Shown here piece by piece: positions 8,161-58,943 of a DNA stretch of 64,000 nucleotides. Every line of letters starts with the position of its first letter. Within the stretch, counting starts at the first letter, position 1. The notes beneath the pieces were generated by a model that had not been told where the DNA came from, ran no database searches, and saw only the letters and a program-made list of their open reading frames with translations. This DNA is from Anaerolineales bacterium (GTDB lineage: Bacteria > Chloroflexota > Anaerolineae > Anaerolineales > UBA4823): positions 3,412,535-3,476,534 of the forward strand of contig CP070639.1 in NCBI GenBank assembly GCA_020354045.1, given 5' to 3'. A program made the translations under genes and the position numbers.

Positions 8161-8317
8161 ATCTCCTTTCCAATTCCATTTCCTTGCATGCTCATGCAGC
8201 TCCATGCCTATAAGGAAACTTCGGGTGGTCGGTGCGTTTCCACACCGGCCTGGGTCGCCTCAGCAACCGGCCTGGTGACCATAGACTTATGTTCTACAGG
8301 TTACCAGGCTCGGAGAT
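8161..8317 (-). ncRNA. Probable molybdenum-cofactor (Moco) riboswitch aptamer
   Basis: The minus strand reads AUCUCCGAGCC...GGAAAGGAGAU. The closing helix is AUCUCC/GGAGAU, with CCGAGCC at the 5' side and GGAAAGGAG at the 3' side; I recall these as Moco-motif hallmarks. Internal hairpins are UGGUAACC/GGUCACCA, GGUGUG-GAAA-CGCACC (GNRA loop) and UUUCCUU...AAGGAAA. This is recognition by eye, not a covariance-model hit. Confidence 0.6.
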
Positions 8318-8334
8318 CCATCGGGTTTATGTTA

Positions 8335-44862: not shown

Positions 44863-44964
44863 CCGGCGTGCGAGCAGAATGTTATCAGAATGTGACCAAT
44901 TTGAACAGGGTCATCTTGCAGCCACTGCCATTTCAGACCAGTCTGCATGAAGCCCACGACCAAA

Positions 44965-45442: not shown

Positions 45443-48148
45443 TCACTCTTGAGCCTGCAATTCGCCAGGTTGAGAAATCAGCTGAATCTTGCCCATCGTC
45501 CCGTCGACCCGAATAAGCTGGCCTGTTTTCAATCTCGTGGTAGCTTGATGGACCCCAACCACTGCCGGGATGCCATACTCGCGTGCCACTACCGAGCCAT
45601 GAGTCATCATCCCACCTACTTCAGTGATCAATCCGCCAGCTGCCATGAACAGCGGAGTCCAGGCGGGATCAGTGCCTGGACAGACCAGGATCTCACCTGG
45701 GGCAAGTTGAGTGCTACGTGGATCAAGCACCACGCGCACAACCCCTTCAACCACCCCTGGCGAGACAGGGCTACCAGTGATGACAACCTGGTTGTCTGTA
45801 CTGGAACCTATGCCCTCGTAATACACGCGACCGTCGCTGACCAGCACACGCGGCACTTGCTTGCGGCGCAGCTCGCGTTCGTAAGCGAGGCGGCGCTCGA
45901 TAATGAGCTCTCGCCAAGTTTGAGCGACCCCCGGGAGAGGCGATTCCTTGCGTGAGAGCGCCTGCAGTTCATTGAGCTGCAGGAAAACCATGTCATCGGG
46001 GTGTTCGAATGTACCAGCGCTGACAAACTCACGCCCCACCTCCAGCAGGGCTTGTCGCGCAACACCCATCATGCGCACCGCGAAAAACTTGGGGCTTTCC
46101 CGCGCCCCCATTAAGATCCGGATGCGCCTGGCAGCTGCGCGCACAACCTTTGCTCTAAACCAGCCACCCGGCAGCTGGCGTGCGGCATCTACCAGCGTTT
46201 CTATCGCCTCTTTGGCTGCCTGTTCGCCGCGTTTAAACAACATGTCCGGGGCGTTATTTATATCAATGCTCAGGTAACTTTGCAGGGTGTGCATAATGGC
46301 TGTCGGTTCTTCACGCCAGCGAGGTTGCCCGAAATCAATTTCCCCTATGCCGCGCATCCCATAGGCTTGCATGAAGTGTGCGATGGCAGTTTGAGCAGCG
46401 GTAGGTAAAGCTCCTTCCAGGTAGTGACTGGTAAGCGTTTTTGCACCTTCTTCAAGAAAAACAGCTCGAGACTGAGCATCCATCCGAATTTCCAGCGCTA
46501 TTTTCCAGAGCGCAAGATCCATTTCAGTGGTCACATTATGGGGCAGACCACGAGTAACCTCCAATGCCAGCTCGCGCTTACCACCTGTGATTTTCGTGAG
46601 CAGGTTGAGTGCGCCCATACTTGGTCCAAATAGTGGAACAAATTTTGGCAGCAAAAAAGGGAAAGCATCCGCGACACGGGTCTGCATAAAGGCTAAGACA
46701 TTAGCCAGCCGTCCAAAATGGTCCTCAGCAGGGGCGATCGTCGCCATACTCAGGTAATCTTTAATGCTCTTATCGAACTCCGACCGCTCTTTTTCGGGAT
46801 TCAGCATAGCTTTTACAAAACGCGGCAACATTGGCAGGAAAAAACGAGCCAGACGGTGCAGGGTGCTTAATTTGATCTTTCCCGCCCCCGCCCCCAGGGC
46901 TGACTCAGCACTGAGCGGCTTTAAGATTTGGGCAACACTCGGCTCGACAAATCCTAACAAGGCACTAAACAGGCGATTTCCAACAGGATGCCGGATCATG
47001 TCACTGATTTTCACCCAGATGCGTTCGCCGGAGACAACAAAAACATCCTGCTGATCATAGTTTATGTGTACACCCAAGACTGTGCCCATACCGGCAAGTA
47101 CGGTACGGATGACATCACGCCCTAATGGCGTGATCGGACCCACCACACCCTGTACCGTACCAAATGAAAACCAGATGATGAGGGGATCAAAGGACACTTC
47201 GGGAATGGGGAAGAGGGAAGTGATCGGGCGCGACTGGAGCAGGTATAGCTCTCCATTCGCAATCGCCCATTCGATATCCTGTGGTGTGCCATACTCCATC
47301 TGGACCTGGTTTCCAAGCTCAACAAGCTGCTCAATTTCATCCAGATTGAGTGTTCGCCGTGCCGCTGCATGTTCCGGAATAGATTCCACGCCACCACCTG
47401 CTTTGCTACGCGTGGAGATTTTCTTCTCGCCGAGAGTCTGCTGGACCACCGCACCATTACGCGTATCCACTACAAAATGGTCGGGCTCCACTTGTCCAGA
47501 GACGAGCGCTTCGCCCAGACCAAATGTAGCATCGATCACCACCTGGCTGCGTAAGCCTGTCAGCGGATTTGCCGTAAACAAAACGCCGGACACATCGCTA
47601 TGCACCATTCGCTGCACAACCACAGCCAGCGCGGTCTCATCATGCTGGATCCCATTTCGCATGCGGTAGCCGATAGCGCGCCCGGTCCACAAGCTACTCC
47701 AGCAATTGACGATAGCCTCGAGTAATTGTTTTTCGCCAAGGATATTTAAGAAGGTGTCTTGCTGCCCGGCAAAGGATAGATCAGGCAAGTCTTCTGCCGT
47801 GGCAGAGGAGCGCACCGCGACAGGGGTCTGCTCTCCGAAACTGTCGCCATACGCAGTTAGGATGGCATTTTCCAGTTCCACAGGCAACTTCCCAGTTGAA
47901 AACGCAACCCGAATTTTGGTTGAAACTCGCTCCAACACTTCCACATCGTCAGCAGAAATGTCTTCTAGTGCAACCTGGATCATCGTTTGTAACTGGTTAG
48001 CTGCCACAAAATGAGAATAAGCATCTGTGGAGATTACAAACCCGTGTGGTACGCGGAATCCGGCTCGAGCAAGGCGAGCGAGGTGGGAGCCTTTGCCACC
48101 GGCATTTGAGAGAGTCGTTTCTTTAGAGGTGAAAGGGAGAATGGTCAT
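45443..48148 (-). CDS. PEP-utilising phosphotransferase with rifampicin-phosphotransferase-like architecture (N-terminal ATP-grasp PPDK_N domain, long middle region, C-terminal swivel phospho-His domain)
   Basis: N-terminus SNAGGKGSHLARLARAGFRVPHGFVIST...RSSATAEDLPDLSFAGQ. C-terminus GEILVCPGTDPAWTPLFMAAGGLITEVGGMMTHGSVVAREYGIPAVVG. No PEP/pyruvate TIM-barrel domain is visible. Confidence 0.8.
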   Translation of the reverse strand: MTILPFTSKETTLSNAGGKGSHLARLARAGFRVPHGFVISTDAYSHFVAANQLQTMIQVALEDISADDVEVLERVSTKIRVAFSTGKLPVELENAILTAYGDSFGEQTPVAVRSSATAEDLPDLSFAGQQDTFLNILGEKQLLEAIVNCWSSLWTGRAIGYRMRNGIQHDETALAVVVQRMVHSDVSGVLFTANPLTGLRSQVVIDATFGLGEALVSGQVEPDHFVVDTRNGAVVQQTLGEKKISTRSKAGGGVESIPEHAAARRTLNLDEIEQLVELGNQVQMEYGTPQDIEWAIANGELYLLQSRPITSLFPIPEVSFDPLIIWFSFGTVQGVVGPITPLGRDVIRTVLAGMGTVLGVHINYDQQDVFVVSGERIWVKISDMIRHPVGNRLFSALLGFVEPSVAQILKPLSAESALGAGAGKIKLSTLHRLARFFLPMLPRFVKAMLNPEKERSEFDKSIKDYLSMATIAPAEDHFGRLANVLAFMQTRVADAFPFLLPKFVPLFGPSMGALNLLTKITGGKRELALEVTRGLPHNVTTEMDLALWKIALEIRMDAQSRAVFLEEGAKTLTSHYLEGALPTAAQTAIAHFMQAYGMRGIGEIDFGQPRWREEPTAIMHTLQSYLSIDINNAPDMLFKRGEQAAKEAIETLVDAARQLPGGWFRAKVVRAAARRIRILMGARESPKFFAVRMMGVARQALLEVGREFVSAGTFEHPDDMVFLQLNELQALSRKESPLPGVAQTWRELIIERRLAYERELRRKQVPRVLVSDGRVYYEGIGSSTDNQVVITGSPVSPGVVEGVVRVVLDPRSTQLAPGEILVCPGTDPAWTPLFMAAGGLITEVGGMMTHGSVVAREYGIPAVVGVHQATTRLKTGQLIRVDGTMGKIQLISQPGELQAQE

Positions 48149-48186
48149 CGGAATATACCCGCAAATTATATTCTTCTTCCTTGTCT

Positions 48187-49782
48187 TTAGCGCCCCTCTT
48201 CCAGAATCATGCCAGGCTCGTCTACCTCGATGCCATGAAGCACTTTTCCTATTCGAACAGGCAGGACAAAGCGCAACTTGCCATTGGCGCGCTTCTTATC
48301 CACACCCATATACTGCAATAGCATCTTGTCCTCCAGGTGTGCCGGAATATTCATGGGCAATCCAAGTTTGGACAAGGAATCTTCCACTTGAGACGTTAAA
48401 TCAGCTTGAGCTATTCCCAAGCGTTCAGACAGCCGTGCTGCAGCTAAAATACCAATCGCCACCGCCTCTCCATGACGCAGGCTGTAATCCGCTGCCCGCT
48501 CAACCGCATGTCCGAGCGTGTGTCCCAGGTTGAGCACCTCTCTGAGACCGCGCTCGTAGGGGTCGGCTTCAATGATGCCGATCTTTACCGCCATTGCCCG
48601 CCGCACCAGCCAATCCCAATCTGCGGAAATCACTTTCCAGCCAAGCTTGCAATGAGCGAACAGCTGCGGGTCGGAAATCAAGGCGTGCTTGACCACTTCA
48701 GCCATGCCACTGCGCAGCTCTTCCAGAGGCAAGGTCGCCAGGGTATCCGGGTCCACCAGCACCAAGCGCGGCGGGTAGAACGCCCCAATCAGGTTTTTTC
48801 CTTGCGGCAGGTCAGCACCGGTCTTGCCTCCCAGGCTGGCATCCACCATGGACAGCAAGGTGGTTGGCACACAAACCCAGCTGATGCCGCGCAGGTAAGA
48901 GGCTGCAGCAAATCCAGCCAAATCCCCCACCACACCTCCACCCAAGGCAAGGATTGTGCTGGTGCGATCCAAACCGGCATCCAATGAGCTGGCCCAAAGG
49001 CGCTCAATTGTCTCCAGGGTTTTGAATTTTTCCCCAGCTGGAATTTCCACCAGGCTGGCATCATAGCCTGCAGATCGGAGGTTAGCTAAAACTTGAGGGG
49101 CATACAAGGGGGTAACATTGCTGTCGCTAACCACCAGCACGGGACCCCCCAATCCTGCTACACTCAAGCATTGGCCAAGCTCATCCAGACTGCCAGACCG
49201 AATACGCACCTCGCAACCGGGAAACCCAGGTTTTTGCATGCCGCGCAGGTAAAAACGCCCCAACGCAGCCTGCACCTGCCAGGTTACTTCCTCGACACTA
49301 TTAGCTCCCACATCAAGCTGCCAGGGAAAAGAGGCATAATGACCAGCGCGCTCAGCCAGCAGATTGGACAAATGAGCGGAGAGATCACCTGCCAAGAGTG
49401 GGCGTGTGACTGATGCGGATTTCAGACGAGCCTGCAACACCGGGGCTGGCGCGCGCAAGCAAAGAACAATTCCGGCAGCTTCTGCTCTTGCCCGCAAGCG
49501 CGGATCAAGCAGGGCTCCACCTCCCAGGGCAATCACCCGTTCCTGCCCATCCAGAAGAGTTTCCAGGACCTGCGCCTCCAGGTGACGGAAGCCCACTTCG
49601 CCCTGCTGGGAAAATATCTGGGGGATAGCGAGTCCACTTCGTGCTTCAATCTCGCTATCCAGGTCCGTAAAGGGTATATGCAGTGCTTGAGCCAGCGCCT
49701 GGCCCAATGTGCTTTTACCTGCACCTGGCGGTCCATATATTAAAACAGGCGCATACAAGGAATGCCCGGCGTTATTGATCAT
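48187..49782 (-). CDS. aroKB: Bifunctional shikimate kinase / 3-dehydroquinate synthase fusion
   Basis: N-terminus LIYGPPGAGKSTLGQALAQAL...FTDLDSEIE...GEVGFRHLE. C-terminus LALGGGVVGDLAGFAA...VPTTLLSMVDASLGGKTG...LNLGHTLGHAVE. The start is 49782 or 49794; both overlap the aroC stop. Confidence 0.9.
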   Translation of the reverse strand: MINNAGHSLYAPVLIYGPPGAGKSTLGQALAQALHIPFTDLDSEIEARSGLAIPQIFSQQGEVGFRHLEAQVLETLLDGQERVIALGGGALLDPRLRARAEAAGIVLCLRAPAPVLQARLKSASVTRPLLAGDLSAHLSNLLAERAGHYASFPWQLDVGANSVEEVTWQVQAALGRFYLRGMQKPGFPGCEVRIRSGSLDELGQCLSVAGLGGPVLVVSDSNVTPLYAPQVLANLRSAGYDASLVEIPAGEKFKTLETIERLWASSLDAGLDRTSTILALGGGVVGDLAGFAAASYLRGISWVCVPTTLLSMVDASLGGKTGADLPQGKNLIGAFYPPRLVLVDPDTLATLPLEELRSGMAEVVKHALISDPQLFAHCKLGWKVISADWDWLVRRAMAVKIGIIEADPYERGLREVLNLGHTLGHAVERAADYSLRHGEAVAIGILAAARLSERLGIAQADLTSQVEDSLSKLGLPMNIPAHLEDKMLLQYMGVDKKRANGKLRFVLPVRIGKVLHGIEVDEPGMILEEGR

Positions 49783-50962
49783 TATCCGCTTCATCCGGCC
49801 AAAAGGTGTGGGCGATAGCATCCATCGGCAGGTCGGAGAGGTGTGCGCGCCGCAGCGCTGCAAAACGCGGGAGCATCTCGTCCAACGCATCCCCGCCTAA
49901 TTTTTCAAGCAATGCTTCCGCCAGCACAATAGCGATTACCGCCTCCAAAATAGGCACTGCACGCGGCACCGGGCAAAAGTCAGAACGCTCATAACGAGTC
50001 TCCACCAGACGTCCCTCAGCAAGATCAACCGATGGCTGTGCAGTCAATGTGGTGGCTATTGGTTTCATAGCAGCCCGGATACACAAGGGCTGCCCGGTAG
50101 TGATGCCACCCTCCAGACCTCCAGAGCGATTCGTAGTACGGACTATCTCATCTGCATCTAACCTTATGGCATCCTGCACCTGGGTTCCAGGTAAGCGAGC
50201 GTTCTGAAAAGCAGGACCGATCTCCAACCCCTTGACGGCTGGCACACTTAAGACCGCAGCTCCCAGGCGCGTCTCCAAGCGGCGATCCCAATGCACGTGC
50301 GAGCCCAACCCAGGAGGCACACCCAAGGCAATAATCTCGACCACACCTCCAAGCGTATCACGGGCGCGGATAATTCCTTCGATGCGAGCACGCATGCTCT
50401 CAGCAGCCTGTGGATTGGGGCAGCGCACATCGGAATCATCAGCCCGCTCCAGGCGCTCTTCCAGCGTCAGCATACTTAAATCAGCCTCTGTCTCACCAAT
50501 CGCGGTTACATAACCACCAATACGCACACCAAAAGCAACGAGCAGCTGCTTGCAAACCGCGCCAACTGCCACACGGGCAGCGGTCTCGCGCGCCGAGGCA
50601 CGCTCCAAAGATGGGCGCAGGTCCCGGTAGCCGTACTTCAGAGCACCTGTCAGGTCAGCATGACCCGGACGCGGTATGGTGAAAGGATCAATGGCTTTAC
50701 CTCGCCACCTGGTGTGATCGCGGTTTACTATTTGCATCGCCAGCGGAGCCCCTGTAGTAACACCTGCCATCACACCCGCCAGGATGCGAACGCGGTCCTG
50801 CTCAATTTTCATCCGGGGTCCAGCCCCATAGCCTCTCTGCCGACGAGCGAGCTCTGCATGGATGGCAGCGTTATCCAGTTCTAAACCAGCTGGCAGACCT
50901 TCCAAAATGGCTAACAGGGATGGTCCGTGGGATTCGCCTGCGGTGAGGAATCTAAGTGGCAT
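49772..50962 (-). CDS. aroC: Chorismate synthase
   Basis: MPLRFLTAGESHGPSL...QRGYGAGPRM...RPGHAD...SARETAARVA. Confidence 0.95.
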   Translation of the reverse strand: MPLRFLTAGESHGPSLLAILEGLPAGLELDNAAIHAELARRQRGYGAGPRMKIEQDRVRILAGVMAGVTTGAPLAMQIVNRDHTRWRGKAIDPFTIPRPGHADLTGALKYGYRDLRPSLERASARETAARVAVGAVCKQLLVAFGVRIGGYVTAIGETEADLSMLTLEERLERADDSDVRCPNPQAAESMRARIEGIIRARDTLGGVVEIIALGVPPGLGSHVHWDRRLETRLGAAVLSVPAVKGLEIGPAFQNARLPGTQVQDAIRLDADEIVRTTNRSGGLEGGITTGQPLCIRAAMKPIATTLTAQPSVDLAEGRLVETRYERSDFCPVPRAVPILEAVIAIVLAEALLEKLGGDALDEMLPRFAALRRAHLSDLPMDAIAHTFWPDEADNDQ

Positions 50963-52136
50963 AATTCTGCTCCCTCCAGTTCCAGTTTTCCAAGCGCTGC
51001 AACACCTGCATCAAGCGCTGCTCGGGTTGGGCAAGAGTCAAGCGAAGATAGCCCTCACCGCCTTGTCCAAAAACAACACCAGGTGTCAGGCTGATATGCG
51101 CTTGTTCCAGCATGGCGGTGGCAAACTGGCTGGAGGTCCAGCCCTCAGGGACCAGGCACCAAAGATAAAGTGAGGCTTGCGGGCTTTCCACATTGAAACC
51201 CAGTCGTCGTAGCCCGGTTACCAGTAAATCCCGCCGGCTGCTGTAGATCCGGTTGCGCTCCTCGAGCCAGCTCTGGTCTTCTGTGAGAGCTACAGTGGCA
51301 GCCTCCAAAACCGGCAAAAAATGCCCACTGTCAGCGTTGGTCTTTACTTTGTACAACAAGCGCAGCGCTTCTGGATTGCCTAAAGCAGCACCTACGCGCC
51401 AACCAGCCATGTTATGAGATTTTGATAACGTGTTGAATTCAATGGCAACGTCTACTGCGCCGGGCACAGCCAACAGGCTAGGAGGCTGGTAACCATCGAA
51501 TGCGACTTGCGTATAAGCGGCATCATGGCAAATCAGGATGCCATGCTTCCTGGCAAAGTCCACAGCCTCTTCAAAAAATTCAAGCGAGGCAATGGCAGCG
51601 GTAGGATTATTGGGGTAATTCAACCACAACAAGCGTGCCTGGCGGGCAATTTCTGGAGGCACCGCGTCCAAGTCAGGCAAAAATTTGCGCTCTGGCAATA
51701 ACGGCAGGTAGTAAGGCTCACCTCCGCTTACCAGGGCGCCCTGCGTGTAGGTCAGGTATCCAGGATCAGGGATCAACACCAGGTCGCCTTCATCAACCAG
51801 AGCCAGATTTAAATGAAAGATGCCCTCCTTAGAGCCAATCAGCGGTATAACCTGGGTATCTGCATCCAGGTCTACCTCATAAAGGCGCGCATACATGCTT
51901 GCCCAGGCTCTCCGCAATGCCGATGTGGCATTGTGCGGCTGGTAGCCATGCTGGTCTGGACGAGCAGCAGCCTCAGCCAGAGCTTGTAAGATATGCGGAG
52001 CAGGTGGCAGGTCTGGTGAGCCCACATCCAAACGGATGATATCATGGCCTTCAGCCTGCAAGCTGGCTACCTTATGGTTGAGCGTGGCGAAAAACTGCGT
52101 TGAGGATCGTTCCAGTCGACGAGCAGGTTTAAGCAT
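50952..52136 (-). CDS. Class I/II PLP aminotransferase (DapL/aspartate-aminotransferase-like; probable aromatic/prephenate aminotransferase by context)
   Basis: FFATLNHKV...IRLDVGSPDLPPAPHI...NYPNNPT...FNTLSKSHNMAGWRVG. ATG 52136 overlaps the aroE stop. Confidence 0.8.
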   Translation of the reverse strand: MLKPARRLERSSTQFFATLNHKVASLQAEGHDIIRLDVGSPDLPPAPHILQALAEAAARPDQHGYQPHNATSALRRAWASMYARLYEVDLDADTQVIPLIGSKEGIFHLNLALVDEGDLVLIPDPGYLTYTQGALVSGGEPYYLPLLPERKFLPDLDAVPPEIARQARLLWLNYPNNPTAAIASLEFFEEAVDFARKHGILICHDAAYTQVAFDGYQPPSLLAVPGAVDVAIEFNTLSKSHNMAGWRVGAALGNPEALRLLYKVKTNADSGHFLPVLEAATVALTEDQSWLEERNRIYSSRRDLLVTGLRRLGFNVESPQASLYLWCLVPEGWTSSQFATAMLEQAHISLTPGVVFGQGGEGYLRLTLAQPEQRLMQVLQRLENWNWREQNYAT

Positions 52137-53043
52137 GTGCATCTCCATCAGTAATCCTAATAGCAGCCGCGTGCATCGCCCCACGGGGGGCTGTGCGCCC
52201 CGTCCAGTGCTCAAAAGCCAGTGCTGCCTGTTCTACGAGCATCCCCAGCCCATTTGTAGCCCGCAATCCAGAGGCACTGGCAGCACGCAGGAAAGCAGTT
52301 TCCGGCGGATTGTACACCAGATCATACACATATGTGTTGACTGGATAATCAAGATTTTTTGGCCAGGGTGAATGTGTAACCTCCGGCGACATGCCTACAG
52401 GTGTAGCATTGACCAGCAGGTCAAACTTTGGAGCCACTGCAGCACATAGAACCGGCAGACCATCAAAGGTGATGGTATGCATCGGTTGGCTGATATGGTG
52501 TCTCAGGCTGAACAATAATTCACGCCCCTGCTCAATGCGGCGAGCAACCACCCATACATGCCATCCAGCCTGACCCAGAGCATATACTACCGCTCTTGCG
52601 GCCCCTCCCGCGCCCAGGACCAATGCTACAGGCAGTTTGCCAGTAGCAGGATAAGGGTCATCCCGCCGCCAACCTGTTTTCGAAACCAGATCAGCCAGGA
52701 AAGCCGGAGCGTCCGTGTTATCACCCACCAGAACACCAGCTCTAGCGAAAATCGTATTAACCGCACCGATCCCAGCCGCTGTGGAGGTAAGTTCGTCCAG
52801 ATGAGGTAAAACCACCTGTTTGTACGGGATGGTGACATTTAACCCATCGATCTCACCACTGCGAACTAGGTTAAGCAAATCAATAATACTGTTGACCTCC
52901 TCTGGTGGCAGTGAATAAAGATGATATTTACCTGCCAGGCCTGTGCCAAGCAAGGCAGCCGTCTGCAAATGAGGCGAAAAGCTGTGACCCAAAGGGTAAC
53001 CTAACAGGCCAAAATGCCATGATTTTCCGGAGGTGTCAGTCAT
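52129..53043 (-). CDS. aroE: Shikimate dehydrogenase
   Basis: FGLLGYPLGHSFSP...NVTIPYK...GAVNT...LGAGGAARAV. I chose ATG 53043, which overlaps the aroA stop by 8 nt. Confidence 0.9.
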   Translation of the reverse strand: MTDTSGKSWHFGLLGYPLGHSFSPHLQTAALLGTGLAGKYHLYSLPPEEVNSIIDLLNLVRSGEIDGLNVTIPYKQVVLPHLDELTSTAAGIGAVNTIFARAGVLVGDNTDAPAFLADLVSKTGWRRDDPYPATGKLPVALVLGAGGAARAVVYALGQAGWHVWVVARRIEQGRELLFSLRHHISQPMHTITFDGLPVLCAAVAPKFDLLVNATPVGMSPEVTHSPWPKNLDYPVNTYVYDLVYNPPETAFLRAASASGLRATNGLGMLVEQAALAFEHWTGRTAPRGAMHAAAIRITDGDAHA

Positions 53044-54430
53044 ACGCCACCTGTGCACCGAGAGATTGCAAAACAGCGAGAAAATCAGGAAACGATTCTG
53101 AGATAACTTCAGCACCATTGACAACGACTGGCTGCTTACACACCAGACCAGCAACGGTCAATGCCATCGCCAGGCGATGGTCACCGTGTGAGTCAACCAC
53201 ACCACCCTGAGGCTGTTCCCCGCCAGTTATAGAAAATCCATCATGCGTCTCGTCGGCGTCGATTCCCAGGTGCTGCAACTCTGAACATAATGCGGAAATG
53301 CGATTGGATTCTTTGTGGCGCAGCTCCTGAGCATCACGCACAAATGTCCGTCCGCGCGCACAGGCAGCCGCTACCGCAAATGCGGGAAATTCATCGATCA
53401 TGCGCACAACCAGGGGGCCTGAAACCTGGATGGTCCGCAAGGACGAAGAGCGCACCAGGACATCGCCAATCGGTTCACCCTGGCGTTCACCAGTAGGGTA
53501 AATACGGATATCAGCTCCCATCGTCATTAAAGCCTCCAGCAGTCCAGTGCGGGTTGGGTTAAGCAACACATCCCGCAGCCTTACCTGCGATCCTGGTGTA
53601 ATTAAGGCAGCCACGAGAATAAAAGCAGCCGAGGAGATATCTCCAGGCAGGCTAAAACGCATAAAAGGTAGAGAGAGCTTTTTGGGAGGCACCAGGTGAG
53701 TTGTATAGCGCAGATTGCCAGAAACCTGGGTGTATCCCTCGACACCGAGATATAAACCACCACGGGCTTCATGGATGGGGATCGGACCACCATTGCGAGC
53801 CTCTATTACTACGGTCAACCCCAGGATGCGCAACATACGCTCGCTATGATCAATAGAGGGACCTGGTTCTGTCAGCCTGGTTGGGCCGTCGGCAGCCAGA
53901 CCTGCAATTAAGAGGCAGGACTTGACCTGAGCGCTGGCAATTGGAAGTGTATACTGCAGCGCCTCCAGCTGTTTCACCCGACGTCCGAAAACCAACGGAG
54001 CCCGCCCACCATCAGCATGAATTGGCACACCCATCTTAGATAATGGCTCAACAACCCGCTCCATGGGACGGCGTCGTAACCCCGGCGAGCCGTCTAGAAT
54101 TGCCGGTAAGCCCGCGTAGGCCAGCAAGCCGGCTAAAAGGCGCATAGTTGTGGCGGAATTCCCGCAATCAATGGTTGTCTCAGGTGAACACAATCCGGTC
54201 AGGCCGGCACCTTGAACACTCAGCGTGCTGCCATCCAGTTCCCAGACTACACCAAGGGCAGTCAGGGCATTCAGCATTACCTGGGTGACACCTGCGACCA
54301 GGAAATTACTCAACCGGCTTTCCCCCTCCCCCAAGGCAGCAAACAAAGCAGCCCGGTGCGATAGTGATTTGTCGCCAGGCAAGTCAATCTCGCCGCGCAA
54401 TGCACCTGCAGAAGACACCCTTAATCTCAT
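53036..54430 (-). CDS. aroA: 3-phosphoshikimate 1-carboxyvinyltransferase (EPSP synthase)
   Basis: LPGDKSLSHRAALFAAL...NSATTMRLL...LRHKESNRI...DHRLAMA. Confidence 0.95.
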   Translation of the reverse strand: MRLRVSSAGALRGEIDLPGDKSLSHRAALFAALGEGESRLSNFLVAGVTQVMLNALTALGVVWELDGSTLSVQGAGLTGLCSPETTIDCGNSATTMRLLAGLLAYAGLPAILDGSPGLRRRPMERVVEPLSKMGVPIHADGGRAPLVFGRRVKQLEALQYTLPIASAQVKSCLLIAGLAADGPTRLTEPGPSIDHSERMLRILGLTVVIEARNGGPIPIHEARGGLYLGVEGYTQVSGNLRYTTHLVPPKKLSLPFMRFSLPGDISSAAFILVAALITPGSQVRLRDVLLNPTRTGLLEALMTMGADIRIYPTGERQGEPIGDVLVRSSSLRTIQVSGPLVVRMIDEFPAFAVAAACARGRTFVRDAQELRHKESNRISALCSELQHLGIDADETHDGFSITGGEQPQGGVVDSHGDHRLAMALTVAGLVCKQPVVVNGAEVISESFPDFLAVLQSLGAQVAYD

Positions 54431-55302
54431 ATTTCCTCCTGATCGTATCGAGTCCCTACCAGAGCCTGGTGATGATTCGCTGCCCGTTCCATTATTTGAA
54501 CCAACTCCAGCTCATTTTGCTGCTCTAAGCAGCTCTCCATGAGACTGAGCTCAGCCCGAAGCGCTCTGAGAACGTTGAGCACATTTTCACGGTTGGTATG
54601 CAGGATGTCATTCATCATAGGCACTGAGCTGCCAGCCAGGCGGCTGCTGCTGTAAAAACCCGGTCCCACCAGCGGGGAATATTCTGCCGGTGTTACCAGG
54701 CTAAGTGCGCATGCCAGCAAGTAAGGTAAGTGACTGGTCGAAGCAACCCAGCGGTCGTGTACCTCTGCTTCAAGCCAGAGAGGATGAGCACCAATCGCAT
54801 CGGCCAGCTGAACGGCAACACGGCGGGCGCGCTCACCTGTGCGCGGCAAGGTTGTGAACGCAAATGTAGCACCCTGGAACAACTCAGCCTCGGCATTTAC
54901 CAAACCATGAGCAGTTTTACCACACATCGGATGCCCACCCAGTGGGTCGAATCGGGCTGGCAACTCAGCCAATGCCTGGCAGACTTGAGTTTTCGTTGAG
55001 CCCATGTCAATTACAACTGGTCCCCCTGGATGCCAATCAGGCAGGTTGTGAATCAATGCAATGATCGCTCGTACAGGAGCAGCCAGCAAGACCAGGTCCG
55101 CTTTGGGTAGTATCTCGCGCGCATCCAAGACAGCTTGGTCTACGATCCGCTCCTGCAAAGCGAGACTCACGGTTCCAGGGTCAGGGTCGTAAGCCAGGAG
55201 CGACCGGCACCGGCCGCGTAAGGCTTTAGCCAGCGATCCACCCATCAAACCTAAGCCCAAGATGGCTATTACGGAATTAGCGAGATCCATGGGTTTGTCC
55301 AT
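54427..55302 (-). CDS. tyrA: Prephenate (arogenate) dehydrogenase
   Basis: [17 protein letters not shown] Rossmann motif...GGHPMCG...[13 protein letters not shown] overlap with aroA. Confidence 0.85.
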
Positions 55303-56338
55303 TGTTATTTACTTTAACCACAGGCGCAACACTGCGACCAACCGCTTGAGCGACCCCGCGTATTTGCCGAACCAGTTCCGCGAAGCGCTCAGGCTTAAGT
55401 GACTGACCTCCATCCGAGTAAGCCGCAGCCGGGTCTGGATGAACTTCAACCAACAGGCCATCAGCGCCGGCAGCAACCCCAGCTCGGGCAATAGCAGTGA
55501 CATATTCCCAATAACCGGTACTGTGACTGGGGTCTAGCAAAACCGGCAGGTGGGTCATGGATTTCAACACTGGGATGGCATTGATATCAGTGGTATTGCG
55601 CGTGGCCGTTTCAAAAGTCCGGATACCGCGCTCGCATAGGATGACACGGCGATTGCCATGCGAGAGGATATACTCAGCCGCCATGAGCAACTCTTCAACC
55701 GTGGCTGACATACCACGCTTCAGCAGAACCGGGTGCTGGCTCTCTCCCACAGCATGGAGCAGGGAATAATTTTGCATGTTACGCGCCCCGATCTGGAGGA
55801 CATCGGCATAACGTATCAACAAGGGGATTTGCTCAATAGCCATCACCTCCGTCACTATCGGCAGCCCAGTAGCCTGGCGAGCCTCGGCTAATATTTCCAG
55901 AGCAGTCTCACCTAATCCCTGAAAAGAATAGGGAGAGGTGCGCGGCTTGTATGCGCCACCGCGTAAAGCCTGCGCCCCGGCTTCTCGCACAGCTTCGGCG
56001 ACTTCCATCAGCTGGCTCCGGCATTCCACAGAACAAGGTCCCGCAATAATCACAATATTTTCTCCGCCAATCTGTATGCCATCTAAATTAAATATTGAAT
56101 TAGCTGGGCTGAACTCGCGCGAGGCCAGCTTGTATGGTCGTGAGATTGGCACAACCCGGTCAACGCCGGGTAGGTGGAAAAACTGTTCTTTTTGTACTGG
56201 GCGCCCGTCTCCAATGGCTCCAATGATTGTACGCTCCTCACCTGTAGACAAATGGGCGCGCAGTCCATTCGCCTGGACAATTTTGACCACTTCATCTATT
56301 TGATTGCGAGTTGCAGTGGTACGCATAATAATCATCAT
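55277..56338 (-). CDS. aroF: 3-deoxy-7-phosphoheptulonate (DAHP) synthase, type I-beta with N-terminal ferredoxin-like regulatory domain
   Basis: The N-terminal ~70 aa form an ACT/FL-like domain ([24 protein letters not shown]), then IIAGPCSVE...[14 protein letters not shown]...DPSH. Confidence 0.9.
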
Positions 56339-56360
56339 CGCCTTTTCTCCATCTTCTAAG

Positions 56361-56735
56361 TTAGATACTTTGGTTTAAGTCTGGACGCAATGCAACCGCC
56401 GCACCCAGATACACATGCTGGATCGCGACTTGAGGCAGGTCAGTATTCCAATGAAGCAAGACGCGAATACAGCGAGGCAAGTCACCTGGTACCGGGATTT
56501 CACGCGCGCAGAGAAGTGGCACCCGATCCCAGCCCAGCTCACGGGCAGCACGCGCGGGATAGGCAGCCGTCAGATCTTCAGTGACTGTGAAAACTGCGCT
56601 GGCAATCTCCTCGGGTTGCATTTGTGGATTGGCTTCCAGCATCTTGTTTAACAGCTCGTGGGAGGCTGCCAAGATCGACTCAGGTGAGTTTGCCTCACAA
56701 GTATTTGCTCCTCGAACACCGCGAACAGCCATCAT
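56361..56735 (-). CDS. aroH: Chorismate mutase, AroH class
   Basis: [22 protein letters not shown] chose ATG 56735 because the track ATG 56747 lies inside the RBS GAGGAGAGG. Confidence 0.9.
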
Positions 56736-56763
56736 TCCTCTCCTCATTTATAACGAAAGAAAC

Positions 56764-56791
56764 AAAAAAACGCGAGGCCGTTAGCCTCGCG
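56764..56791 (-). terminator. Attenuator terminator: CGCGAGGC-UAACG-GCCUCGCG + U7, 28 nt upstream of aroH
   Basis: 8-bp GC-rich stem (56791-56771), extendable by A5/U5, followed by UUUUUUU (56770-56764). It is located inside the 5' leader, not after a gene. Confidence 0.7.
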
Positions 56792-56818
56792 TTTTTGGTT
56801 AGATATGTGTCCAATCGC

Positions 56819-56899
56819 TTAAACGCTTCTAACGGCAGATTTGTCATTGATGCCGTAATAATAAAAAGCGTAATAGCGAACGAATGAGATGTTGTTCAT
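56819..56899 (-). CDS. 26-codon aromatic-rich leader peptide MNNISFVRYYAFYYYGINDKSAVRSV
   Basis: Hand translation of the minus strand. 5 Tyr + 2 Phe of 26 residues, concentrated as Y-Y-A-F-Y-Y-Y. It lies about 25 nt downstream of the predicted TSS. Only a weak purine-rich RBS (AAGAAG) is present. Its last 5 codons form the antiterminator strand. Confidence 0.55.
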   Translation of the reverse strand: MNNISFVRYYAFYYYGINDKSAVRSV

Positions 56900-56930
56900 C
56901 AAAATTCTTCTTTTTAATTTCGTAAACCGA

Positions 56931-56959
56931 ATTCTACTCGCAGGGGATTAAGCTGTCAA
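56931..56959 (-). promoter_or_regulatory. Near-consensus sigma70 promoter TTGACA-17-TAGAAT for the aromatic operon
   Basis: Minus strand: TTGACA (56959-56954), an exact 17-nt spacer, TAGAAT (56936-56931). Confidence 0.6.
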
Positions 56960-56992
56960 GTAGACTCTTTGGAAATTGAGAAGGCAAGCCGG

Positions 56993-58639
56993 TCAGGGCG
57001 TGCTTTTGCTGACCAGCGGTAGATAGAGTTTGTTGTATATTGGTTCGGGTGCTTTGACGGTCAACTCAGCGCATGTTTCCGCACCGGTGTTACCTAAGGC
57101 ATCCCACCCCCGTACACAAAGGGTGTAAGTGTCTTCTGAACCAGGAGCATCAAAAGCTGCGATGACAAGCTCGGTCACCTCGTCGAAGGCGCCATCTTCT
57201 GCCTGCATAGCATCCCAGGTTTGACCTGAATCAAGGCTGTATTCGGCTGAATTGATCACTGACCCACCAGAATAAGTATCACTGATCGTTGCTGTGACAG
57301 TCACCAATTGGGTTACAACCACCGGGTTGGGATCTAAATCTAAATTGACTGTACCTGGTCCTTCGCCATCAACAATTAATGGTTTGCAGCTGGCACTTCC
57401 CTGCTTGGGAATTGAATCGTACCCCCTGACACAAAGATTGTATGTTCCAGACTGATCCGGTGCAAAAATCGTCACCTTCACATTCTCAACCACCTCATCA
57501 AAGGTCCCGTCTTCTGCCTGCATAGCATCCCAGTTTTGACCAGAATCGAGGCTGTATTCGGCTGAATTGATCACTGACCCACCAGAAAAAGTATCACTGA
57601 TGGTTGCCGTAACAGTCATCAGTTGCGTTGTACCTACGCGGCTGGGTTGCAACAAAACATCTGTGGTTATTGGTCCCTGATCGTCTACACTTAATGAGAT
57701 ACAAGTGGTGCTGCCCTCATTGGTAGCTGTATCTGTGCCTTTAACACACAGGTCATACATCCCATGCTGGTCCGGAGCCGAGAAATTAGCTTCCACTGTT
57801 TCAGCGCTCTCATCATAGCTGCCATCCTGGGCAGCCATCGGCGACCAGCTCCCTGCCTGACCAATTCTGTAATCTGCTGAAGCAATCATTGAAAGTCCGG
57901 TGGTGGTATCATCGATGGTTGCGCTAAAGCTCATCAATGCATTTACCCCAGCTGGATTAGGGCTGGCAACCAGATTCGTGCTGACCGGTCCTTCGTGATC
58001 CACACGACCCATAAATAAATCTACCTTATTTTGCTCGGGGCTCTTGGAATTGATCCCGCTGAATGCCAGGGTACCGGTGAGGGTAAAACCAGCGCTTAAA
58101 TCATACCCGGTCACATTCCAATCCAGACTCGAACCAGGTGTTCCTGAAAAATCCCCGAGGGGATTGCCATCCAGCATCACACCGGTCAGGTTAACTACGG
58201 TCGAGGCATGATTCTCTACAACAATCCGCATCTGAAGATAATTAAGAGCACTCAAATAGCTGTAAGCCAATGCGCCTTTGAGATTCAGTACCTGGGTAGA
58301 ATAATTGAGATAATCAAATGAATACACACCATGTGTGTTGGTAATGGCGATGTTTAGCTTATCCAAAGCCGAACTATAGGTGAAAGCAAACGTATTCTGG
58401 GCATCCCAGCTCACATCGTTAGACGAACCTGTGGCACTATCTAAACCCAGAAAAGCCTCCCAACTATTCTCAGTTGTAAAATTGCGGAACTTGCCATAAC
58501 CCAACAAGACTGCTGTCGGATCTGCCCCGGGAGTAACAACCAGAGTTGTATATGGGTTGGCACTGCCTAGTTGTGTTGGGTAAGCCCCAAAGATCAAATA
58601 CAAAATAATTACACCGGTTATGAAAAGCTTCTTCGTCAC
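56993..58639 (-). CDS. Secreted/anchored protein with three tandem ~105-aa Ig-like repeats
   Basis: N-terminal signal/anchor KKLFITGVIILYLIFGAYP. The repeats contain I(S/D)DT(F/Y/T)(S/T)G..(I/M)(N/A)SA(E/D)Y...W..M.A.DG.(F/Y)DE...Y.LCV(R/K)G.D. The start is probably GTG 58639, 5 nt after GGAGG. Confidence 0.65.
   Translation of the reverse strand: MTKKLFITGVIILYLIFGAYPTQLGSANPYTTLVVTPGADPTAVLLGYGKFRNFTTENSWEAFLGLDSATGSSNDVSWDAQNTFAFTYSSALDKLNIAITNTHGVYSFDYLNYSTQVLNLKGALAYSYLSALNYLQMRIVVENHASTVVNLTGVMLDGNPLGDFSGTPGSSLDWNVTGYDLSAGFTLTGTLAFSGINSKSPEQNKVDLFMGRVDHEGPVSTNLVASPNPAGVNALMSFSATIDDTTTGLSMIASADYRIGQAGSWSPMAAQDGSYDESAETVEANFSAPDQHGMYDLCVKGTDTATNEGSTTCISLSVDDQGPITTDVLLQPSRVGTTQLMTVTATISDTFSGGSVINSAEYSLDSGQNWDAMQAEDGTFDEVVENVKVTIFAPDQSGTYNLCVRGYDSIPKQGSASCKPLIVDGEGPGTVNLDLDPNPVVVTQLVTVTATISDTYSGGSVINSAEYSLDSGQTWDAMQAEDGAFDEVTELVIAAFDAPGSEDTYTLCVRGWDALGNTGAETCAELTVKAPEPIYNKLYLPLVSKSTP
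57195..57601. repeat. Intragenic direct repeat: 92-nt blocks at 57195-57286 and 57510-57601 differ at 4 positions (315-nt period)
   Basis: Aligned by eye. The flanking parts of the same protein repeats are much more diverged. Confidence 0.8.
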
Positions 58640-58943
58640 GACATCCTCCACGAAATAACTTAAAAATGATACTTGCCAATTCCAAAAAAAATAGAAGGTA
58701 CAGACCTTGCAAGGTAAGTACTTTCTTCGATAGTATAGGATTTTATTTGGTTTCTTGGCTTATCAAAATCGTTAGGATGCAACCCAAAAGAGAAGAAATA
58801 TCGGCCAAATTCAAATTGGCAATCTATCTAGCCGGAGAGATTATTTATCAATTTCGCTGTCAATTAGACAAAATATATCTTATAATACAGGTTCGATTTC
58901 TTCCGCGTTGACACAGAGCAAGTGATTTAGGAGTGGAGGTATT

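Follow-up and report, generated by a model that had tools for sequence, protein, structure and literature searches.

The operon for aromatic biosynthesis described here lies on the minus strand of a 64,000-nucleotide stretch of Anaerolineales contig CP070639.1, which was analysed as a whole and is referred to below as the window. Its first structural gene, aroH (56361–56735), encodes an AroH-type chorismate mutase (Pfam CM_1, E = 1e-44) and starts at ATG 56735 (or 56732); eight further genes follow on the same strand. Upstream, a gene for a 552-amino-acid protein (56993–58651, minus strand) ends with its stop codon at 56993, and the leader that separates this gene from aroH holds a promoter, a short open reading frame (ORF) rich in aromatic codons and an intrinsic terminator, all on the minus strand. 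These elements had been picked out in an earlier note made from the sequence of the window alone, and all the coordinates and sequences it gave are correct.

The leader promoter consists of a –35 box, TTGACA (56954–56959), and a –10 box, TAGAAT (56931–56936), separated by the spacer of 17 nucleotides (nt) that the earlier note had proposed. It scores 11 matches out of 12 and is the sole strong promoter-like site within 56300–57300. The –10 box lies 31 nt from the leader ATG, and the 5' untranslated region (UTR) would be A/U-rich and about 25 nt long, with the weak AAGAAG as its only Shine-Dalgarno-like motif. The ORF (MNNISFVRYYAFYYYGINDKSAVRSV; 56819–56899) has 26 codons plus a TAA stop, with the ATG at 56899–56897 and the stop codon at 56821–56819, and homologous ORFs are present in 57 aligned leaders. 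Seven of its residues are aromatic, as first reported (F6, Y9, Y10, F12, Y13, Y14 and Y15). Six of these are concentrated in the seven codons from codon 9 to codon 15 (56855–56875; UAU UAC GCU UUU UAU UAU UAC, Y Y A F Y Y Y), a run that we regard as the putative ribosome stall site.

The intrinsic terminator (56764–56796) has a GC-rich core, CGCGAGGC-UAACG-GCCUCGCG, at 56791–56771, followed by U7 at 56770–56764, ahead of the Shine-Dalgarno sequence of aroH, GAGGAGAGG (56737–56745). The hairpin and its U tract had also been recognised at the outset; by adding the flanking A and U runs the stem reaches 14 pairs (56796–56766). A strict scan of both strands of the window, requiring a stem of at least 7 base pairs (bp) plus a T-rich tail, finds about five terminator sites, with the palindromic hairpin of the aro leader counted twice. 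Canonical intrinsic terminators are rare in the window. No other pairing of a terminator with an amino-acid-biased upstream ORF (uORF) is found in the 64 kb, in which the aro leader is the sole case.

The 186-nt leader folds with –51.7 kcal/mol, compared to –33.5 ± 3.6 kcal/mol for dinucleotide shuffles (z = –5.1), and can adopt three alternative helices. Region 1 (56851–56879), which overlaps the aromatic codons, is the 5' strand of an anti-antiterminator found in the minimum free energy folds. Region 2, GCCGUUAGAAGCGUUU (56821–56836), runs from the final codons of the ORF into the first base of its stop codon and pairs with either region 1 or region 3. Region 3, AAACGCGAGGCUAACGGC (56777–56794), spans the terminator 5' arm, the loop and the first bases of the 3' arm, and forms the antiterminator with region 2. 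Helix 1:2 (56879–56851 with 56837–56815; –20.3 kcal/mol), helix 2:3 (56836–56821 with 56794–56777; –17.8 kcal/mol) and helix 3:4, the terminator (–21.5 kcal/mol), are mutually exclusive and alike in stability. The 2:3 pairing is exactly the one drawn in the earlier note, with stretches of 8 bp and 6 bp on either side of a 2x4 internal loop; its RNAduplex energy is –17.2 kcal/mol, compared to –7.8 ± 2.2 kcal/mol for 300 shuffles of region 2, only one of which does as well (z = –4.3). That note had described helices 2:3 and 3:4 but had missed helix 1:2. The last Tyr codon ends 19 nt before the start of region 2, and the stop codon sits at the 3' edge of region 2.

To place the leader in an evolutionary context we used a set of 80 aroH loci with their flanks, obtained by an alignment-based scan from GTDB representative genomes, mostly metagenome-assembled genomes (MAGs) of Anaerolineae. 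The window's own genome lies outside this set, in which the best aroH identity is 68%; homologues of the AroH protein number in the thousands, and those nearest to it are 67–73% identical and come from MAGs of Anaerolineales and other Chloroflexota. Of the loci, 79 extend far enough upstream for their aromatic content to be assessed, and in 65 of them a stop-free stretch with at least six aromatic residues in eight occurs within 400 nt upstream of aroH, compared to 14 of 2479 background windows of 400 nt from the same loci (0.56%). A terminator about 25 nt past the ORF stop is found at 49 loci by a strict perfect-stem scan and at more if one mismatch is allowed. The full combination of ORF, codon run, terminator and complementarity between ORF end and terminator is present upstream of the aro operon in ~59–74 of the 80 loci, and these comparative data support the trpL/pheL-type logic that had been proposed from the window alone.

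A covariance model, R1, built from 54 relative leaders with the window left out (141 positions), matches the window at 56761–56896 on the minus strand over positions 1–141 of 141, with 90.7 bits and E = 2.3e-17, and this is its sole copy in the 64 kb. R1 also recognises the leader at 59 aroH loci of the set of 80 and in three closer relatives that were fetched separately; each of the 59 matches has the orientation of the operon and sits at its 5' end. Anaerolinea thermophila has a copy as well (L053). A typical relative peptide reads MLKSxRWFAFYFYYGFRxSVAVGGA, and in L087, the closest relative, the leader encodes ..RYYAYYYYFGIDSSTAVGSV, a peptide of the same type as the window's. The gene order aroH-DAHPS-tyrA-aroA-aroE (DAHPS, DAHP synthase) is kept in most loci, as judged by tblastn with the window proteins. 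In L045, where the DAHPS gene precedes aroH, the leader (MNFNTSSRYFAYVYFYGNGNPNACGGA plus terminator) sits 5' of the DAHPS gene, and Planctomycetota aroH loci without the operon are without the leader too. These comparisons support the view that the leader belongs to the operon and not to the neighboring upstream gene.

Fifteen loci that R1 does not match carry an aromatic run upstream of aroH together with another type of terminator, GAGCGUGGAGC-loop-GCUCCACGCUCUUUU, and form a second, sequence-divergent class (L020, L041, L044, L047, L049, L058, L060, L063, L065, L071, L074, L075, L078, L079 and L080). An example of its leaders would encode ..REDYFAYYYAYAxASG... The class includes Caldilineaceae and loci in which aroH is fused to prephenate dehydratase. 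As it shares both the aromatic run and the terminator, the design is wider than the sequence family described by R1.

Within the 57 aligned leaders, the two ends of the ORF evolve in different ways. The peptides contain 202 Phe, 199 Tyr and 25 Trp residues, that is a mean of 3.5 Tyr, 3.5 Phe and 0.4 Trp codons each, and the use of synonymous codons is free (TAT 103 and TAC 96; TTT 151 and TTC 51), with Tyr and Phe interchanging. The 5' part of the ORF shows strict 3-nt periodicity, with U-[UA]-[UC] codons and synonymous variation at the third position, and across genomes it encodes the motif R-[WF]-F-x-[FY]-Y-[FY]-Y-[YF]-G behind a variable N-terminus. The 3' end of the ORF, GCCGUUGGNGGCGCUUAAG, is kept as nucleotides even in eight loci (L001, L004, L014, L016, L028, L046, L050 and L073) where a 1-nt indel after the aromatic run shifts the frame, such that the peptides end in ..RLPLAALK* instead of ..VAVGGA*. 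In these leaders a TAG stop lies 4 nt past the usual TAA, and the position of the stop is thus held within 4 nt. The alignment indicates that the aromatic run is constrained as codons and the 3' third of the ORF as RNA. Such a split is expected of a leader-peptide attenuator and speaks against a functional small protein as well as against a switch made of RNA only.

The alignment of the orthologous upstream regions also shows compensatory changes, which are strong in the terminator and few in the antiterminator. In the terminator they affect 13 of the 14 pairs in the 57 sequences, one pair being GC in 39, AU in 12 and CG in 6. In the core of helix 1:2, seven of eight pairs have changed on both sides, all five measures lie beyond 500 of 500 column shuffles, and 86.5% of the cells are paired, compared to 17–69% when the partner is slid. 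The corresponding figure for the outer antiterminator helix is 85.6% in register, compared to 14–49% with the partner slid. Columns 90, 153 and 177 vary three ways, with U-A-U 19 times and C-G-C 11 times, where column 90 is the third position of a Gly codon and column 177 the terminator partner of column 153. Columns 88 and 155 form GC in most relatives, GU in L086 and L087, and AU in the window. Across the family the terminator loop, CCA/CUA-ACGG, hardly varies, which would be unexpected for a plain terminator and would be accounted for by its pairing with GCCGUUGG. Complementarity between regions 2 and 3 exceeds that of shuffles at p ≤ 0.05 in 39 of the 57 sequences. The support for the antiterminator comes mainly from conservation and complementarity.

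The start of the leader ORF is tied to the promoter. Reading the 60 nt 5' of the leader ATG (e.g. L040:3756-3818), we find in 46 of 57 relatives a promoter of the TTGAC[ATG]-17-TAGAAT type whose end is 6–13 nt away from the ATG, and in 35 of them exactly 10 nt. With the usual discriminator of 6–8 nt, the transcript of most relatives would start ~3–4 nt before the AUG, leaving the ORF nearly leaderless. An ATG right behind a conserved promoter supports its being the real start, and a nearly leaderless ORF accounts for the lack of a conserved Shine-Dalgarno sequence. The weak ribosome-binding site that the earlier note gave as its main caveat thus holds for the window copy but is softened by the arrangement in the relatives.

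We consider it highly probable that the element is a ribosome-mediated (leader-peptide) transcription attenuator of the aromatic (shikimate/tyrosine) operon. Translation of the ORF, stalling, termination and amino-acid-dependent read-through are the steps that we infer from the sequence features, and they would proceed as follows. Transcription would start at TTGACA-17-TAGAAT, and the 26-codon ORF would be translated while RNA polymerase moves on. A shortage of charged tRNA-Tyr or tRNA-Phe would make the ribosome stall in YYAFYYY (56875–56855); since 19 nt separate the last Tyr codon from region 2, a ribosome stalled there would disrupt helix 1:2 and leave region 2 free. Region 2 would then pair with region 3 and sequester the terminator 5' arm and loop, allowing polymerase to continue into aroH and the rest of the nine-gene operon. 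With an ample supply of aromatic amino acids, the ribosome would reach UAA (56821–56819) and, as the stop codon is placed at the 3' edge of region 2, would cover this region while terminating, such that helix 3:4 forms and transcription stops at U7. Without translation, helix 1:2 would hold region 2, and the terminator would form as well. The 2:3 pairing would be broken by changing GCCGUUAG to GCCGAAAG, and the compensating changes would fall in CUAACGGC.

The earlier note saw a bias towards Tyr in the leader peptide. This bias is present in the window but is limited to the window's subclade. Since the peptides of the family mix Phe, Tyr and Trp codons, the element appears to sense aromatic amino acids in general, on behalf of the common pathway, and not Tyr specifically. 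It may also be that the R-(aromatic)n-G nascent peptide itself adds to stalling in the manner of an arrest peptide, beyond the effect of codon supply.

Several observations weigh against the attenuator model. Covariation in the antiterminator is modest, with 19 cells changed on both sides and several measures lying within the column shuffles. The inner antiterminator helix occurs in two registers shifted by one base, a ACGCGAGG-type, which is window-like, and a GAGCGAGA-type. Most relatives have a small inner hairpin, CCGnnnnCGG, that the window lacks. The window is furthermore among the 11 of 57 leaders with a longer 5' UTR, where the ORF is not leaderless and is preceded by the weak AAGAAG. 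No terminator is found between the 552-amino-acid gene and the leader promoter, and read-through transcripts could also meet the leader terminator. Finally, all relatives compared are uncultured MAGs. A single consensus for the inner antiterminator helix was dropped, as the registers differ between subfamilies, and as a consequence of this shift only the outer helix was counted.

Among the alternatives, we weighed variants in which the same leader acts on translation, on mRNA stability or via Rho, or in which it encodes a ligand-sensing arrest peptide like TnaC. The Arg before and the Gly after the aromatic run are conserved, and Arg is encoded by AGG in L054 instead of CGY, which hints at selection at the amino acid level. 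The Gly codon lies within helix 1:2, however, and pairing with region 2 is possible for the Arg codon, such that the RNA explains most of this conservation. The GC-rich stem with its U7, together with the U tracts kept in the relatives, points to intrinsic termination, and the Shine-Dalgarno sequence of aroH lies outside all leader helices. We regard these variants as unlikely.

A switch made of RNA only, either a metabolite- or tRNA-binding riboswitch or the target of a protein of the TRAP or PyrR kind, would make the ORF incidental in a U/A-rich leader. It would agree with the constraint on the 3' part of the ORF, which acts on the RNA and not on the peptide, with the conservation of all three helices and with the poor Shine-Dalgarno sequence of the window ORF. 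It would not explain the codon periodicity, the synonymous third positions and the exchange of Tyr and Phe in the 5' part, nor why the frame is always opened by an ATG, which in 46 of 57 loci follows the –10 box at 6–13 nt, nor why the stop always keeps its position with respect to region 2, whichever of the two frames is used. The aromatic-codon stretch is unpaired and is without conserved junctions resembling a ligand pocket. A cmscan search of 56600–57100 against Rfam 15 at E ≤ 10 returned weak small RNA models on the terminator hairpin only; there was no match to a Phe, Trp, His, Leu or Thr leader, to the Lactococcus leu/phe leader RF01743 or to the T-box RF00230, and the leader, at ~160 nt, is without a T-box motif. 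Such a switch is in our opinion quite improbable.

We give very little weight to the idea of a functional small protein, hydrophobic or aromatic (a membrane peptide, for instance), as the product of the ORF, with the hairpin as an ordinary or partial terminator that sets the stoichiometry of the operon. The length of the peptide and part of its sequence are indeed conserved in many genomes, but its N-terminus is not, and its C-terminal third is read in two frames across genomes while the nucleotides remain unchanged. A small protein would also give no role to a terminator placed between the promoter and a nine-gene operon and carrying a loop complementary to the end of the ORF, and the composition of the peptide matches the products of the downstream pathway. 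Lastly, the notion that the hairpin terminates the upstream 552-amino-acid gene, with promoter and ORF present by chance, has in its favor that no other terminator lies between the stop at 56993 and the hairpin, but is rejected on synteny and refuted by the comparative data, as the hairpin lies 200 nt past that stop and 3' of a promoter with 11 of 12 matches, the gene is found by tblastn in none of the 80 related loci while at least 59 have leader and terminator, and the leader of L045 precedes the DAHPS gene, which comes first in the operon there.

The attenuator model can be compared to several known systems. Like the pheL-pheA and trpL-trpEDCBA leaders of E. coli (RF01859 and RF00513), the Anaerolineae leader has a short ORF rich in codons for the end product and four segments that form helix 1:2, a 2:3 antiterminator and a 3:4 terminator with a U tract, and its stop codon is placed such that a terminating ribosome covers segment 2. 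It differs from them in having no homology in sequence or structure and no Rfam match at E ≤ 10, in mixing Tyr and Phe (and Trp) codons across the window's family where each of those leaders uses a single amino acid, in controlling the common shikimate pathway and tyrA instead of a terminal branch, in the almost leaderless ORF of most Anaerolineae relatives, and in its host, which belongs to the Chloroflexota (Anaerolineae) and not to the Proteobacteria. Mixed peptides are known from the ilvGMEDA (Ile/Leu/Val) and thr (Thr/Ile) leaders, where one peptide combines codons of several end products and starvation for any of them relieves termination. Those leaders serve another pathway and other amino acids and have no sequence relationship to the present one, for which multivalent behavior is suggested by the codon content.

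Cys-rich uORF attenuators on leaderless transcripts have reportedly been described in mycobacteria by Canestrari and colleagues in 2020, with a mechanism said to work at least partly without a canonical terminator. The likeness lies in a leader ORF on a (nearly) leaderless transcript, to which the distance between promoter and ATG points in 46 of 57 relatives; the amino acid and the phylum are different, and the window copy would have a 5' UTR of ~25 nt. Outside the Proteobacteria, the leader usually reported for amino acid operons is the T-box. The closest functional analogue is found in Corynebacterium glutamicum, where the leader peptide aroR (Phe-Tyr-Phe) attenuates the aroF DAHP-synthase operon (Neshat et al. 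2014, via PMC11802643). According to that account, ribosome stalling raises read-through, and Phe limitation affects transcription while Tyr availability does not (PMC11802643). As described there, the two leaders have in common adjacent Phe and Tyr codons ahead of an operon encoding DAHP synthase, but they belong to different phyla and presumably arose independently. The aromatic run comprises three codons in aroR, again on that description, compared to 6–7 here, and the Anaerolineae operon is far larger, with nine genes. The earlier note's impression that leader-peptide attenuation was not known for such an aro operon is therefore in need of qualification, as a precedent exists. A full-text literature search found no description of an aro leader for Chloroflexi or Anaerolineae, where an earlier prediction is nonetheless possible. 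A survey of leader genes from 2016 found the sampling of Chloroflexi too sparse to interpret (PMC4833913).

On the comparative evidence, an uncatalogued family of attenuators that would work by a textbook mechanism is well supported. We lean slightly towards a wider claim, namely that this is the first recognized ribosome-mediated attenuator family of the Chloroflexota, Anaerolineae-wide, mostly leaderless, multivalent for Phe, Tyr and Trp, present in at least two divergent versions and gating the whole common aromatic pathway. To our knowledge, almost nothing is known about gene regulation in the Anaerolineae, and the leader would provide a concrete regulatory mechanism for aromatic biosynthesis in this large and mostly uncultured group. 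It would also imply that attenuation coupled to transcription and translation operates, or is at least strongly selected, in the Chloroflexota, while the known principles of attenuation are left unchanged. The alignment and the R1 model could seed an Rfam family and improve the annotation of MAGs with regard to operon starts, missed small ORFs and the promoter consensus. With its near-leaderless arrangement, the family may serve as a natural model for the coupling between leaderless initiation and attenuation.

The eight genes behind aroH (45443–56338, minus strand) are closely spaced or overlapping and were assigned with Pfam. They encode, in this order, a DAHP synthase with an FXD domain (a ferredoxin-like regulatory domain), TyrA (prephenate dehydrogenase), AroA (EPSP synthase), AroE (shikimate dehydrogenase), a class I/II aminotransferase, AroC (chorismate synthase), an AroK-AroB fusion of shikimate kinase and dehydroquinate synthase, and a 901-amino-acid enzyme that utilizes phosphoenolpyruvate (PEP). 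Pfam searches of the operon genes found tyrA but neither pheA nor a dehydroquinase gene. The 901-amino-acid protein (45443–48148, minus strand) has PPDK_N and PEP-utilizers mobile domains, and its gene begins after a gap of 38 nt 3' of aroK-aroB and may be part of the same transcript as the aro genes. Were the protein a PEP synthase, it would supply a substrate of both DAHP synthase and EPSP synthase. A terminator-like hairpin is located at 44864–44837 on the minus strand.

In the related loci, L044:4001-5212 encodes AroH fused to prephenate dehydratase and an ACT domain (CM_1 + PDT + ACT), and tandem DAHP synthase paralogues, each with an FXD domain, occur in L008 (3000–4052 and 4101–5135) and L005 (4410–5462 and 5212–6600). 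In Pfam, the upstream 552-amino-acid protein of the window has a sub-threshold hit only, to Mo-co_dimer, with 19.7 bits compared to a cut-off of 22.7. At Rfam gathering thresholds the sole match in the whole window is a Moco riboswitch aptamer (RF01055) at 8184–8327 on the minus strand, with 50.1 bits compared to a gathering score of 36 and E = 5e-9.

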